A DNA stretch of 64,000 nt from a virus. A program made the position numbers and the translations under genes. This document shows, piece by piece, positions 39,691 to 46,245 of the stretch. The first letter of the stretch is position 1; each line of letters starts with the position of its first letter. The DNA is taken from positions 1-64,000 of IMG/VR virus record IMGVR_UViG_3300028563_000016; one strand, 5' to 3'. The notes under the pieces are model-generated. The model was not told where the DNA came from. It saw only the letters and a program-made list of their open reading frames with translations, and ran no database searches.

Positions 39691-40158
39691 ATGTCAAATG
39701 GAATGAAACATTTGGTGAAATGTAGGTGTACATTACCTCAATTCAAAAAGGCGTTTTCACCACCAAATCACCAATTTATTGTATTTTCCGTAATAGACGA
39801 TAGCGATAATGTAATTCCAAAAATTGTTGTTTGTAACAATTGTGGCGTAGTTCACAAAGTGATTGATATCACAAAGTCAGTCATTGTCAACGGGAAAGAA
39901 AATATTACAACGCTTGTAACCGCAGAAGAAATTGCGTGTGGGTTACCTGAAAAGCTTGTTTCAGTTCTTGAAGCAAATAACGTTGACATTCCAACGTGGG
40001 AAGCTGTCAAATTTACATTTGACAATAAACAGTGGGGTAACATGGTCGTGTTGACGGGTGAAACAATAGACGATGAGAGAACAGGAAAATTTATTGTTCT
40101 ATTGAGCGAGACAGCTTTTCGCGTTGAAAACTTCACTCGTAAAGAGGTTGCACAATGA
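39691..40158 (+). CDS. Conserved phage protein with a Zn-ribbon
   Basis: KHLVKCRC.LPQF and CNNCGVVH; start at MSNG. Confidence 0.6.
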   Translation: MSNGMKHLVKCRCTLPQFKKAFSPPNHQFIVFSVIDDSDNVIPKIVVCNNCGVVHKVIDITKSVIVNGKENITTLVTAEEIACGLPEKLVSVLEANNVDIPTWEAVKFTFDNKQWGNMVVLTGETIDDERTGKFIVLLSETAFRVENFTRKEVAQ

Positions 40159-40409
40159 TGTACGGCAAACTTAGTTCTGAAAAGTTTTCAGAAGAAAATG
40201 AACAGTGTAGGGAAATTCTTGGTGAAATTGTTAATTTTGGTGTGTCTGATAGACAAAAACTTTTCATAATTTATTTGCTCGCTCTGGAATTAGAAGACGT
40301 AGAAAAGATGCAAAACATCGCATCTTTTATGAAAGAATTTTATGGTAGCGAAATTTTTCTAACTGAACACTATGAAAGCGAGAACGAAAATGGGACGTCA
40401 AGCACTTGA
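40155..40409 (+). CDS. Hypothetical protein
   Basis: Translationally coupled 84-aa ORF. Confidence 0.55.
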   Translation: MMYGKLSSEKFSEENEQCREILGEIVNFGVSDRQKLFIIYLLALELEDVEKMQNIASFMKEFYGSEIFLTEHYESENENGTSST

Positions 40410-40989
40410 GTGTACAAAGAATGCAACAACAAATAGTTCAGCGCTTGAGAGCATGCTTGTGCAGTCTCAGTCTCCGGACATGCGTGTCATAACGTTATAC
40501 GGAGACGTTAATGAACAATCAATTTCTACTACAATAGAAAAATTAATTTGGCTTGACAGTCAAAGTCACAAAGACATTCACCTCATAACTTCAACGTATG
40601 GAGGTGTAATACATGATATGATGGCTTTGTATGACACGTGCATGTTACTGAAGTCTCATGGAACTCAAGTTTGTACGGTTGGAATTGGAAAGATCATGAG
40701 CGCAGGTGTGTTAATTTTGGCTTGTGGTGCAAAAGGAAAGCGTCTCATTGGACGCACTACAACCGTAATGATGCACGGTGCAAGTAGTGGTACTGTGGGA
40801 AACGTGTTTGAAATGGTGAATGAAGTCACCGAAGCAAAAAGGATTAATGATCTGATGGTTGAATTGTTAGTTGAAAATACAAAGATGTCAAAGTCATACA
40901 TTGAAGACATGTTCAGTAAAAAACTTGACAAGTACATTGATGCAGAAAAAACAATTGAACTAGGAATTGCTGATAAAATCATTGGGTAA
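40390..40989 (+). CDS. clpP: ATP-dependent Clp protease proteolytic subunit
   Basis: STYGG, GKIMSAG (catalytic Ser), MMHG (His) and DKYIDAE...LGIADKI. Confidence 0.9.
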   Translation: MGRQALECTKNATTNSSALESMLVQSQSPDMRVITLYGDVNEQSISTTIEKLIWLDSQSHKDIHLITSTYGGVIHDMMALYDTCMLLKSHGTQVCTVGIGKIMSAGVLILACGAKGKRLIGRTTTVMMHGASSGTVGNVFEMVNEVTEAKRINDLMVELLVENTKMSKSYIEDMFSKKLDKYIDAEKTIELGIADKIIG

Positions 40990-41006
40990 TGTGGTAAAAT
41001 ATTCTT

Positions 41007-42554
41007 GTGAATATAACAATTGACGATTGGAAACAGCATTTTCCATATGACAACATTCGTCCTCAACAGGAGGATGCAATTAATTTTGTTCTTGATGCAT
41101 TTTTGAACAAAAAAAAGAAATTTTGTGTGTTGGAATGTGCCGTTGGTGTAGGAAAGTCAGCAATTGGAATAACGGTTGCAAGATTTCTGCGTGCAAGTAC
41201 ACATTTGAAAGTTAATTATGCGCTTGGTTCATACGTTTTGAGCACGCAAAAAGTCTTGGTGTCACAGTATACACGAGACTTTGGACCCAAGAATAGAAAT
41301 CTAATTAGAGAAATATCGTCCGCGAGCAATTTTACGTGTGCTCACAATCCTACACAAAAATGCAGTGAAAGCAAACGTATTTTAAAAGCTCTTAAAGAAA
41401 AGTTACAAGGGACTGAATTTTACAATACGTGTAAAAATAGGTGTCCATATACACTTGCAAAACAAGATTTTTTAAATGCTGACATTGGTGTGACGAACTT
41501 TTCGTATTTTCTTGCAGAAACAAAGTATGCGCATCAACTTGAACCCAGATCGTTAGTCATCGTGGATGAATGTCATTCGCTCGAGAATGTTTTAAGCAGT
41601 TTTGTTGAAATAACGTTTTCTGAAAAGTTCGCTAAAGACGTGTTGAATTGTAAGTTTTCAAAACGTGCAGCAACACAAGAAGAAGTTTTTGATTGGGTGA
41701 AGAAAAATTATAAGCCTTCATTGAGTAGAAAAATCAAAGCGCTTGAAAAGCAAATTGAAATTGAAATTGCAGGTTCAGAAGATTTGACTGTTGAAACTGC
41801 AAATAGCAAACAATTTGAGATGCTTGATAAACACATATGTAAAATCAATCGTTTTATTGAGGCATATGAACCTGATAATTGGGTGATGAACGTAGTTGAT
41901 GTGCAGGCGGGAGACAAAAAACTACGTCGTTATGAATTCAAACCTGTTGATATATCACCGTTTTGTGAAGACTATTTGTACAAGTATGGCACTGATCACG
42001 TGTTGCTGATGTCAGCGACAATAATGAACAAAGAAGCATATTGTCGATCAGTTGGAATCAAACCTGCTGATGCCGAATTCTACACCGCACCTTCACCGTT
42101 CCCGGTAGAAAATAGACAAATTCACATAATTCCCGCGGGTAGCATGTCGTATCGTTGTATTGATAACACATTACCCATTCTTGCTGAAGCCGTAAAAATG
42201 TTATTAGAACGTCATAAAGACGTCAAAGGGATGATTCATTGTGTTGATAAAGATACGCTTGTGACAATGAGTAATGGATCATATAAAAAAATTGTAGACG
42301 TTAAACAAAATGATAATATTTTAACATATAATGAAAATACTTCAAAATTTGAAAATCAATCCGTTATTGATGTTTGGGAAAATGGTATGAAAAATTGTAT
42401 TGAAATTGAATTTAAAAATGGAAATCGTGTTATATGCACACCTGAACATTTGTTTTTAACAAGAAATCGTTCTTGGGTACAAGCACAGTTTATAACTGAA
42501 TATGATGACGTAATCATATTGAAACGTCCCAATTGTGGGATAAACAACGTTTAA
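41007..42554 (+). CDS. DinG/Rad3-like SF2 helicase N-terminal part fused to an N-intein
   Basis: Q-motif RPQQ, Walker A GVGKS, Fe-S-type Cys cluster, DECH and MSAT; the intein begins at residue 412 (CVDKDTLV). Confidence 0.9.
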   Translation: MNITIDDWKQHFPYDNIRPQQEDAINFVLDAFLNKKKKFCVLECAVGVGKSAIGITVARFLRASTHLKVNYALGSYVLSTQKVLVSQYTRDFGPKNRNLIREISSASNFTCAHNPTQKCSESKRILKALKEKLQGTEFYNTCKNRCPYTLAKQDFLNADIGVTNFSYFLAETKYAHQLEPRSLVIVDECHSLENVLSSFVEITFSEKFAKDVLNCKFSKRAATQEEVFDWVKKNYKPSLSRKIKALEKQIEIEIAGSEDLTVETANSKQFEMLDKHICKINRFIEAYEPDNWVMNVVDVQAGDKKLRRYEFKPVDISPFCEDYLYKYGTDHVLLMSATIMNKEAYCRSVGIKPADAEFYTAPSPFPVENRQIHIIPAGSMSYRCIDNTLPILAEAVKMLLERHKDVKGMIHCVDKDTLVTMSNGSYKKIVDVKQNDNILTYNENTSKFENQSVIDVWENGMKNCIEIEFKNGNRVICTPEHLFLTRNRSWVQAQFITEYDDVIILKRPNCGINNV

Positions 42555-42672
42555 ATGAACTTGGAATATTATGAAAATTAAGTCAAAAAAATATGTCGGA
42601 TTACGATTAGTTTACGATATGACAGTTAATAAAAATCATAATTTCATTGCAAATGAAGTTGTAGTTCATAAT
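42240..42672 (+). mobile_element. Naturally split intein (IntN 42240-42551, IntC 42571-42672)
   Basis: Block A CVDKDTLV, block B CTPEHLFLT, stop; new ORF MKIKSKK..VYDMTV..NHNFIANEVVVHN|C. Confidence 0.92.
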
Positions 42673-43101
42673 TGTCAAACTTACAAAATTGCAACATTCA
42701 TAAAAGATTATGTAAATTCTGATAGAATTTTGTTACATAATTCTGAAAATCGTGATGCAGTGTTAAAACAACATATGAAATCAAATAAACCAACAATTTT
42801 ATTGTCTCCTTCGATGGCTGAAGGAATAGATTTGTTTGACGACAATAGTAGATTTCAAATTCTTTGCAAAATTCCATATCCGTTTTTAAAAGACAAAGTG
42901 GTGTTAAAACGAATGGAAAAAGACAAAGAATGGTATGCATATCAGACAGCAAAGACAATAGTACAATCTTTAGGAAGATCAGTTAGAAATGAAAAAGATT
43001 TTGCGGTGAGTTATATTCTTGATAGTGATTGGAAGCGTTTTTACGCTCAAAATAAACATATGTTTCCCACTGATTTCGTGCAACTTCTCATTGCGGAGTG
43101 A
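42571..43101 (+). CDS. C-intein fused to the helicase C-terminal domain
   Basis: After HN|C: LLSPSMAEGIDL, KIPYP, QSLGRSVR and YILDS. Confidence 0.9.
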   Translation: MKIKSKKYVGLRLVYDMTVNKNHNFIANEVVVHNCQTYKIATFIKDYVNSDRILLHNSENRDAVLKQHMKSNKPTILLSPSMAEGIDLFDDNSRFQILCKIPYPFLKDKVVLKRMEKDKEWYAYQTAKTIVQSLGRSVRNEKDFAVSYILDSDWKRFYAQNKHMFPTDFVQLLIAE

Positions 43102-43454
43102 TTATGCCAAGATTAAAACACAAAGTTTTAAAGTACGATCAAGTCGAAAATGATCCCGACAATGATGATCAGGTGAGCATCATGTCAATGTGGCGTGTCG
43201 TTGAAGACACCGTTGCTGCAATTCGTCTAGATGTTGCAAAATGTGCAAATGGAAGTATAGTTGCCGGCAGACGTTCACGAGTTGGGTTACGTAATATAAA
43301 GAACGTCGTTATGATACTCATACGTGAGACAAACAAACGAAACAAACAATCAATTAATCGTCGTCGTAAATATCGCGAAGAGAACGGCATTCAGCCGATG
43401 AATAGGGTGAAGTATCTCAAAAAGAAGTCAAAGATTAATGAGGAAAATAATTAA
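43098..43454 (+). CDS. Hc1/histone-H1-like DNA-binding protein
   Basis: DVAK..NG...AGRRSRVGLR.IK; basic tail. Confidence 0.6.
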   Translation: MIMPRLKHKVLKYDQVENDPDNDDQVSIMSMWRVVEDTVAAIRLDVAKCANGSIVAGRRSRVGLRNIKNVVMILIRETNKRNKQSINRRRKYREENGIQPMNRVKYLKKKSKINEENN

Positions 43455-43457
43455 AAC

Positions 43458-43751
43458 ATGGCAAATTTACGCACCCATCGCGCAGTGTTGGCTGACATAA
43501 TTGATTTACACCTTGATCCTACAAAACCACATACAATTGTTGGTAAAGATGGAAGATTAAAAATCTCGAATTTGTGGCATGATGAATTAGTTATCACGCC
43601 GACGATTTTTACTGACGAAACAGTCGAAGCTCCAGTTACTGACGAAACAGTCGAAGCTCCAGTTACTGACGAAACAGTCGAAGCTCCAGTTACTGACGAA
43701 ACAGGCGTTGTCGTAGTTGGTCGTCGTAGAAACAAGAAGACTACGAAGTAA
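43458..43751 (+). CDS. Hypothetical protein with TDETVEAPV repeats
   Basis: Conserved-looking N-terminus, acidic repeats, basic tail. Confidence 0.6.
   Translation: MANLRTHRAVLADIIDLHLDPTKPHTIVGKDGRLKISNLWHDELVITPTIFTDETVEAPVTDETVEAPVTDETVEAPVTDETGVVVVGRRRNKKTTK
43611..43704 (+). repeat. Perfect 27-bp coding tandem repeat, about 3.5 copies
   Basis: ACTGACGAAACAGTCGAAGCTCCAGTT at 43611, 43638 and 43665, partial at 43692. Confidence 0.95.
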
Positions 43752-43968
43752 TAAATTTACAAATTTTATTAATAATTTCTTTTTCTTGCTGCCCCGTGCT
43801 GATGCGATTATTTCCTATCGCTTTTCCAATGTCGTGAAGAGTGTGTGGCCCGTTGTTGACGGCAAGTATCATACAATTGTAGTTTTCAGAGAAACTGCAC
43901 CATTGTTTACATGATGTATTTTTGCAAGAGACATTATTTGTTGAACAGTTTGAATAACATGTTGTCAT
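43741..43968 (-). CDS. Cys-rich protein with a sigma region-4-like HTH
   Basis: Cys-rich N-terminus; GPHTLHDIG..IG..R....Q.EKE...KI. Confidence 0.6.
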   Translation of the reverse strand: MTTCYSNCSTNNVSCKNTSCKQWCSFSENYNCMILAVNNGPHTLHDIGKAIGNNRISTGQQEKEIINKICKFITS

Positions 43969-43996
43969 ATGGTATAGTTAAATAATAGGATAAGTT

Positions 43997-45358
43997 GTGC
44001 ACCGGTACAACAAAGAAAGCAGGCTCAACGTGGTGAAAACGTACGTTTTAGATACTAACGTTTTACTGAGCGATGCATATGCATTGTTTGCGTTTGAAGA
44101 CAACAATGTGATCATTCCAATGATAGTGTTGGAAGAACTTGATAAATTTAAGACACGTCAGGACGATGTTGGTAAAAATGCGCGCCTTGCAAACAGATTA
44201 TTAGATGAACTTAGAGAAGTAGGATCATTGGTTGATGGCGTGAAACTTCGTTGTGGTGGAACACTTCGAGTTATTTTAACAGATAATGAAATGTTGTGTT
44301 GTTTACCTGTTGAAATGCAACAACATCCGACCGCAGACAATTCAATAATCGCATTAGCGCTTGCGTTTAAAGATTCGCACCACATGCTAACAATGGTATC
44401 AAAAGACATTAACATGCGCATCAAGTGTGATGTGTTACGAATTAGGTGTGAAGATTATAAACACCTGCGCGTCACGGACGCGGAAGACAAATTATATACA
44501 GGCGTAAAAGTTCAAGTCGTTCCAGATGATGTTGTACAAGCATTTTATGATGACAATTTCTTAGATTTGAGTGACTATTGTTCATTATACCCAAATCAGG
44601 CTGTTGTGCTTAAGAGCGAAGATGAACAAAAAAAGACGATTAGATCTGTGCTTGCAAAGTGTAAACCAATTGCATCATCAAAAGACGTGATTGTTCCAAT
44701 TGCAAAAATTGGTGATGTGTATGGTTTACGATCAAGAAATAAGGAACAAGCGTTAGCGTTAGACATGTTATTGGATAATGACGTAAAGCTTGTGACGTTA
44801 GCGGGCAGAGCCGGCTGTGGGAAAACGTTATTGGCGTTAGCAGCCGGATTACAACAATTAAAGAAAAAATATTCTAAAATTATTGTTACACGTCCAATTC
44901 AACCATTAGGAAAAGATATCGGATTTTTACCGGGAACCATGGAAGAAAAAATGGCGCCGTGGATCGCCCCAATTAGGGACAATATCGGATATCTGATGAG
45001 TGCAAAAAATTCAAAAAATAATTTAATGCTCGACGCTATGTTGAAAAAGGGCGAAATTGAAATTGAAGCAATTACGTACATTCGTGGTAGATCAATTCCA
45101 AATGCGTTTATTATTGTAGACGAATGTCAGAATATTACGTTACATGAGCTTAAAACAATTTTGACTCGCGTGGGTGAAGGATCAAAGGTAGTTTTGACTG
45201 GCGACGAAAGTCAAATCGATAACGTGAACGTTGATATGTTTTCAAATGGTCTTACGCATGTCATTGAGAAGTTCAAGGATCAACAAATTGCTGCACATAT
45301 TAAATTAATTAAAGGCGAAAGATCGCAGCTTGCAAGCCTTAGCGCTGATATCTTATGA
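43997..45358 (+). CDS. phoH: PIN-domain PhoH-family ATPase
   Basis: YVLDTNVL (PIN), GRAGCGKT, IGFLPG, YIRGRS, DECQN and GDESQID. Confidence 0.95.
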   Translation: MHRYNKESRLNVVKTYVLDTNVLLSDAYALFAFEDNNVIIPMIVLEELDKFKTRQDDVGKNARLANRLLDELREVGSLVDGVKLRCGGTLRVILTDNEMLCCLPVEMQQHPTADNSIIALALAFKDSHHMLTMVSKDINMRIKCDVLRIRCEDYKHLRVTDAEDKLYTGVKVQVVPDDVVQAFYDDNFLDLSDYCSLYPNQAVVLKSEDEQKKTIRSVLAKCKPIASSKDVIVPIAKIGDVYGLRSRNKEQALALDMLLDNDVKLVTLAGRAGCGKTLLALAAGLQQLKKKYSKIIVTRPIQPLGKDIGFLPGTMEEKMAPWIAPIRDNIGYLMSAKNSKNNLMLDAMLKKGEIEIEAITYIRGRSIPNAFIIVDECQNITLHELKTILTRVGEGSKVVLTGDESQIDNVNVDMFSNGLTHVIEKFKDQQIAAHIKLIKGERSQLASLSADIL

Positions 45359-46245
45359 CAGTAATTAAAATTGAGAAAAAAGAAAAAACATGTGGTCGAA
45401 ATATACGATTGATGTGTGATGAATGTAAATGTGAATTTATAAAAACATATCAAAAGGTTCAAATAGAAAAAGTGTATCATTTTTGTTCACAAAAATGTCA
45501 TTATAATGCACAAAAGGATGGTCATATATTACAACTTGCGTTTTTAACAAAATATGGTGTTTCAAATAATTTTGCTAGGCAAGACGTTGTTGAAAAAATT
45601 AAAGAAACTACGTTTGCAAATTATGGCGTTACGAACATATCGCAAGATGAAAATATAAAACGAAAAAAAGAAGAGACGTGTTTTAAACATCACGGAGTTT
45701 TATATCCTTCACAAGATCCAATTATACTTACAAAACAACGTCAAACGTTTTTTGAAAATAATGGAGTGACAAATTGGCATGATCTTTGTGTTAAACGTGG
45801 AACAGTATTTCATGCATACGATCATGAAAAAATACGAATAAAAGCATTAGAAACTCGCATTACAAATTCATCATTATTTACGTCAAAAGCAGAAAAAGAA
45901 TTCATTGAACGTCTTGATATATTATTTATTGATAACGTTCATTCAAAACGCGTCAAAATGTGGCCAATTGATTGTTATGTCACATCATGTGATGTTTATG
46001 TGCAACATGATGGTGAACATTGGCACGGATTACAACAAAAATCATTAAAATATGACAAAGTATGTGAACAAGTAAAACGTGATCGTATTCAAGATGAATA
46101 TTTTACAATAATGAACATGAAGTTAGTTCGTATAGCAAGTTTAATAGCAAAAAAGATATCAAATGATGAACTACGTGATTTAATCGTGAATGCAAAAGTG
46201 GGTGTCACGTACGTTTACGGTGACGCAAAAGTTCCCGTTTTGTAG
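45355..46245 (+). mobile_element. Free-standing PD-(D/E)xK homing endonuclease (Zn-finger and YGV repeats)
   Basis: CDEC..FCSQKC, repeated K/NYGV, SKAE and ID.Y...YVQHDGEHWHG. Confidence 0.75.

Follow-up and report, generated by a model that had tools for sequence, protein, structure and literature searches.

Introduction

Genes interrupted by split inteins were described as fractured genes by Dassa, London, Stoddard, Schueler-Furman and Pietrokovski (2009; PMC2677866), who named gp41, IMPDH, DnaE, NrdA, NrdJ, ligase and terminase as hosts and GIY-YIG and Vsr-like proteins as endonuclease types, and who also described a hairpin upstream of the C-half. In step III of their model the endonuclease gene has been lost and the halves stay adjacent, as at the locus gp41-7 (PMC2677866). 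The locus reported here resembles these fractured genes in that two adjacent ORFs share a phage gene for DNA metabolism, with the break at the canonical split site of a mini-intein, and its relatives resemble them in having a free-standing nuclease gene whose end overlaps the start of the C-half; as at gp41-7, a short spacer alone separates the halves. However, the host list of Dassa et al. is without the XPD/Rad3/DinG-type SF2 helicase that is the predicted host gene here, the nuclease of the relatives seems to be of the T7 endonuclease I-like PD-(D/E)XK type rather than GIY-YIG or Vsr-like, and the hairpin was not found at the spacer of our locus, where the RNA showed no significant fold (z -0.12).

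Two other groups of split inteins are close to the one described in this work. Among inteins with solved structures, NrdJ-1 (E 2.6e-5), Spl DnaX and gp41-1 (E 0.01) are nearest in sequence. NrdJ-1 and gp41-1 (PDB 8ubs, 6qaz) come from phages or metagenomes and share the block B context (CTPDH / CTPEH) with our N-terminal half (IntN), but their matches to it are short and of low significance, they occur in another host protein at another insertion site, and their splicing has been measured, whereas our pair is known from sequence. The cyanobacterial DnaE inteins of Ssp and Npu are, like the predicted intein of this locus, class-1 inteins with Cys1 and Cys+1, and their basic C-terminal half (IntC) of about 35 aa starts with M-(I/K)-K-I; their halves, however, lie far apart in the genome, whereas ours are separated by a few nucleotides. 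Charge complementarity between the halves is strong in DnaE split inteins. Here it is present only in part: IntC is basic (net charge +4) and IntN, unlike that of DnaE, is just slightly acidic (-2).

The DNA analysed, hereafter the window, is a stretch of 64,000 nucleotides (positions 1 to 64,000) of the IMG/VR virus record IMGVR_UViG_3300028563_000016. The record is 75.7 kb long and ~22% complete according to CheckV, which implies a phage genome of ~300 kb or more; the phage is an uncultured soil jumbo phage. No near relative was found among GenBank phages by blastn with window positions 40000-44000, and the best protein match in a cultured phage was to Tunturiibacter phage Tunturi_5 (31% identity). 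We propose that two adjacent genes of this phage are, in all likelihood, the halves of one helicase of the XPD/Rad3/DinG family, joined by a naturally split class-1 intein that has reached the endonuclease-lost stage.

Results

The two ORFs and the features assigned to them are listed in Table 1. At the boundaries of the putative intein, ORF1 passes from KGMIH into CVDKDTLV and ORF2 from VVVHN into CQTYKIA, and the two extein parts sum to 553 aa. The layout given in the preliminary description, with its TPEH motif, the stop at 42554 and the restart 16 nt later in another frame, was confirmed from the sequence in every point. Upstream of the ATG of ORF2 only a weak, Shine-Dalgarno-like GGA purine patch was observed.

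Table 1. Features of the split helicase locus, in positions of the window.
Feature	Position	Strand	Description
ORF1	41007-42554	+	515 aa (411 + 104); helicase N-part, then N-intein; stop TAA at 42552-42554
N-extein	41007..42239	+	helicase residues 1-411; Walker A (GVGKS), four Cys, DECH box, SAT motif
N-intein (IntN)	42240..42554	+	104 aa + stop codon; Cys1 42240-42242; TPEH (block B) 42438-42449
Spacer	42555..42570	+	16 nt between ORF1 and ORF2; three-frame stops
ORF2	42571-43101	+	176 aa (34 + 142); frame differs from ORF1; C-intein, then helicase C-part
C-intein (IntC)	42571..42672	+	34 aa; starts MKIKSKK; NHNF (block F); ends His-Asn (42667-42672)
C-extein	42673..43101	+	Cys+1 (42673-42675) and helicase C-terminal domain; 142 aa + stop codon

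One stop per frame was found around the spacer (TAA at 42552, TGA at 42556 and TGA at 42572). Since the spacer is closed in all frames, no single frameshift or sequencing error yields one ORF, and a cis intein produced through frameshift or readthrough was ruled out on the same ground. Positions 42540-42580 were bridged without indel by Logan contigs from four public rhizosphere-metagenome runs, and these contigs show no continuous ORF, in agreement with the two separate genes described at the outset. In each of the runs X1 and X2 one contig of 1076 nt covered positions 41975-43050 with 0 differences to the window; run X1 may be the source sample of the window assembly. The split is real sequence and not an assembly artefact. 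Further downstream, the contigs of X2 and X3 are the same as the window up to about 43058 and then show 16-17 differences within 100 nt, together with a 1-nt insertion behind 43102 (window region 43059-43157), which, for the 3' end of the helicase gene, points to a strain-level mosaic or a recombination breakpoint.

Both halves of the putative intein passed the curated cut-offs of intein profile HMMs, in line with the preliminary description. Residues 412-515 of ORF1 scored 43.8 bits with TIGR01445, which covers the N-terminal splicing region (cut-off 24.5, E 3.8e-11), and 44.3 bits with PF14890 (cut-off 35.8, E 2.2e-11), and residues 1-34 of ORF2 scored 28.3 bits with TIGR01443, which covers the C-terminal splicing region (cut-off 15.6); ORF2 residues 1-37 also match positions 2-39 of the DnaE-C model PRK07373. 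The features of a class-1 intein, namely Cys1, a TxxH block B, a His-Asn end and Cys+1, are present. Cys1 (C412) and the Thr and His of block B (T478, H481) were invariant across 10 N-fragments (alignment A3), and in the C-halves (alignment A1) H33 was invariant and N34 and C35 were at least 90% conserved, the sole exception at N34/C35 being an intein-less fragment. Past its conserved core IntN carries an 11-aa tail, which relatives do not have. A model of the IntN/IntC complex (ORF1 405-515 with ORF2 1-42) reached an ipSAE of 0.65 versus 0.02 for the best control, and so passed a mark that 58 of 80 solved complexes reach, as do 2 of 110 mismatched pairs; agreement between its runs was at least 92% of contacts, with a partner pLDDT of at least 71. 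The model supports the view that IntN and IntC would be compatible for pairing, a pass that may reflect likeness to solved split inteins, because such complexes are among those solved. Splicing of the two halves looks possible from their residues.

The extein parts were recognized by helicase profiles, with DEAD_2 (33.2 bits, cut-off 21) and ResIII (34.5 bits) of Pfam on ORF1 and Helicase_C_2 (68.1 bits, cut-off 25.3) on ORF2. Residues 1-411 of ORF1 match the DNA helicase family phrog_2488 (E 3e-61), and matches in the PDB were to FANCJ, XPD and Rad3. Four Cys between motifs Ia and II, as in a predicted Fe-S cluster domain, are highly conserved in alignment A3 (C111, C142 and C146 invariant, C119 at least 90% conserved). 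The gene had been described as a DinG/Rad3 helicase, which stands as regards the superfamily (DEAD_2, Helicase_C_2) but not as regards a bacterial DinG orthologue, as the NCBIfam cut-offs of the DinG/YoaA equivalogs were not reached (24-41 bits vs 598-789). Its profile matches place the protein in the XPD/Rad3/FANCJ/DinG superfamily, in the phage branch phrog_2488.

The closest relative, L003, has ~87% DNA identity to the window, the same gene order and a contiguous 553-aa helicase ORF, which at the corresponding site reads KGICH followed directly by CQNYKIA, the IntN segment being absent. The exteins align with this helicase end to end (N-extein 94% identical over residues 1-411, C-extein 89% over residues 412-553), and because 411 + 142 = 553 aa is its length, the intein boundaries are exact; the spliced length that had been predicted beforehand is therefore the length of an existing intein-less helicase. 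The intein is likewise missing from most other relatives, L005 among them, which have Cys at position +1. The insertion point falls where the Helicase_C_2 domain begins, within a strand (KGIIH-C/T) that is conserved among relatives, and inteins usually sit at conserved sites. When the intein was removed and window positions 42001-42833 were compared with L003, identity was 0.78-0.82 near the site and about 0.88 in the flanks; this dip could be a co-conversion tract, although it is too weak for such a claim.

Among the 80 best helicase relatives in IMG/VR, the intein is present in five loci on four distinct contigs. On a tree built from the exteins only, the five intein-bearing rows need 5 changes, at least 4 of them forced by strongly supported branches, and for the window, L011 and L009 alike the sister is intein-less, with strong support. 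Such a patchy spread would be expected of a mobile element subject to gain and precise loss, and it argues against a role on which the phage depends.

A search with ORF2 returned 53 proteins, and at least 24 clusters, about 174-176 aa long and 51-62% identical, begin with the same IntC, in the pattern M-K/R-I/L, then NHNF, then VVHN followed by C; the start Met, the HN end and Cys+1 of IntC are kept in 24 homologues. With IntN only, a search of 1.8 billion representatives gave 2711 matches, and in 60 of the best 150 the match ends at most 25 aa from the C-terminus of the protein. All representatives that carry the helicase N-extein (11/11) end 2-21 aa after IntN, and a contiguous C-half was absent from each of these 11; a word-based search for longer proteins with IntC and the junction, which is weak evidence, returned none. 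Five of the 11 are full N-fragments of 480-520 aa, and the divergent N-fragments P0061, P0084, P0091, P0096 and P0144 end in IntN. Identity to relatives is 39-44% for IntN and 33-49% for the N-extein, and this similar conservation of intein halves and exteins suggests that the intein is under purifying selection; the conservation of single residues together with this extein-like conservation would argue for selection for a working intein. Because the split is kept in dozens of homologues at 40-60% identity, it appears to be old and not a recent break, as the reading of a natural split, rather than of a recently broken cis mini-intein, had supposed.

Some of the proteins found in these searches have other architectures. 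P0069 (620 aa) consists of a fragment of DnaE (DNA pol III alpha) followed by the closest relative of IntN (48% identity) and, within the same ORF, a Phage_endo_I-like nuclease domain, and thus appears to be an in-frame fusion of an N-intein with the nuclease family found as a free-standing gene in L011 and L018. P0065 (885 aa) and P0156 (513 aa) are helicase N-fragments in which a terminal IntN is accompanied by an internal intein; maturation of their products would take one splicing event in cis and one in trans.

The halves had been described as having no endonuclease between them, which holds for the window, where a free-standing endonuclease gene is absent and the 16-nt spacer is all that intervenes, but not for its relatives L009, L011/L012 and L018, in which an ORF of 244-274 aa lies between the halves and overlaps with its end the start codon of IntC. 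In L011 and L018 this ORF scored 26-30 bits with Phage_endo_I, at or just below the cut-off, and matched phrog_9019/945 (E 1e-17 to 1e-18 for phrog_9019); that of L009 gave no profile match and has the same D...E-x-K motif. By these profiles and this motif, the intervening ORF of the relatives matches a T7 endonuclease I-like PD-(D/E)XK nuclease. Where the nuclease gene is missing, the gap is 47 nt (L010) or 16 nt (window); how often the endonuclease gene is present or absent was counted over the five IMG/VR loci.

As for the surroundings of the helicase, it is flanked by a ClpP-like head-maturation protease (40372-40989; phrog_94, E 2.6e-24) and a PIN-PhoH-like protein (43997-45358; phrog_2765, E 4e-108), and the order protease-helicase is common to L003, L005 and L009. 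The PhoH-like gene is separated from the gene that follows by an ORF of 296 aa (45355-46245, + strand) that matches homing-endonuclease families (phrog_3339, E 6e-14; DUF7487, E 1.4e-9). L003 has both flanking genes and no match to this ORF, apparently a mobile, free-standing endonuclease gene whose insertion is particular to this phage. An ORF of 97 aa (43458-43751, + strand) contains three tandem copies of the 9-residue unit DETVEAPVT; its counterpart in L003 has 136 aa and a different repeat region, and identity to L003 is 0.65-0.71 here.

Discussion

The proposal made in the preliminary description, that a naturally split class-1 intein joins a two-gene helicase, is supported by intein profiles, by conserved residues and by diverged split homologues. 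We hypothesize that both halves, being encoded by neighbouring cistrons, would be translated, probably from one transcript, and that the 104-aa IntN and the basic 34-aa IntC would then assemble into a HINT fold. Cys1 would form a thioester, which would be transferred to Cys+1; the terminal Asn of IntC would cyclise with the aid of the penultimate His, and after this cyclisation the rearrangement of the ester to a peptide bond would give a 553-aa helicase with the junction ...KGMIH-CQTYK....

Other explanations of the two-gene arrangement differ in whether the halves splice at all. If they were splicing-dead and served as a non-covalent dimerisation module, the helicase would be a two-chain enzyme, and the modelled interface fits association with or without splicing chemistry; nevertheless, Cys1, the Thr and His of block B, the His-Asn end and Cys+1 are kept across homologues with 40-60% identity, and because selection for binding only would not keep the splicing residues, we consider this explanation unlikely. 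It is far more improbable that a cis mini-intein broke recently at this locus or that the assembly is in error, the gene being a pseudogene with a non-functional helicase, a view that would find some basis in the close spacing of the halves and in the intact gene of L003. This explanation is largely refuted, since the spacer has stops in all frames, the junction is identical in four runs, and the same split point and start Met recur in at least 24 divergent clusters and several N-fragments; the contiguous form was not found either, part of that search being weak evidence.

A different question is whether a splicing intein is of use to the phage. Conditional protein splicing occurs in some Cys-dependent inteins, and the long life of the split and the conservation of its splicing residues could be explained if the split were kept for conditional assembly of the helicase, for instance through redox- or timing-dependent splicing at Cys1/Cys+1. 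Yet the intein is scattered on the helicase tree with intein-less sisters to its carriers, nuclease genes lie between the halves in relatives, and close relatives do without the intein, so that we regard maintenance for such a purpose as quite unlikely, somewhat more so than the two-chain enzyme. Tree scatter and intervening nuclease genes are marks of a mobile selfish element; most likely, the split class-1 intein is such an element that comes and goes in the helicase lineage, and not a regulatory device. By analogy with the known fractured-gene arrangement, the window and L010 would match its endonuclease-lost stage.

No published split intein in a DinG/Rad3-type helicase or in a jumbo phage was found in a search that had most subscription journals outside its scope. 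The locus adds an XPD/Rad3/DinG-type helicase, with the first conserved strand of its C-terminal domain, to the host sites of natural split inteins, and the series of diverged natural IntN/IntC pairs provides candidate ligation tools. The post-translational control point put forward in the preliminary description would be speculation, and its new orthogonal pair a candidate at most. It is doubtful, if a little less so than any of the alternatives weighed above, that the at least 24 diverged pairs would form an efficient and mutually orthogonal trans-splicing set, or that the Cys1/Cys+1 chemistry would make helicase assembly conditional (e.g., on redox state) and thus a control point. The understanding of how split inteins work is unchanged by this family. 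At one and the same site, however, the helicase genes present three stages of the model of Dassa et al., that is, the empty site, the split intein with a free-standing nuclease gene, and the split intein from which this gene is gone, and the helicase-site family is a useful case for the origin and persistence of split inteins.
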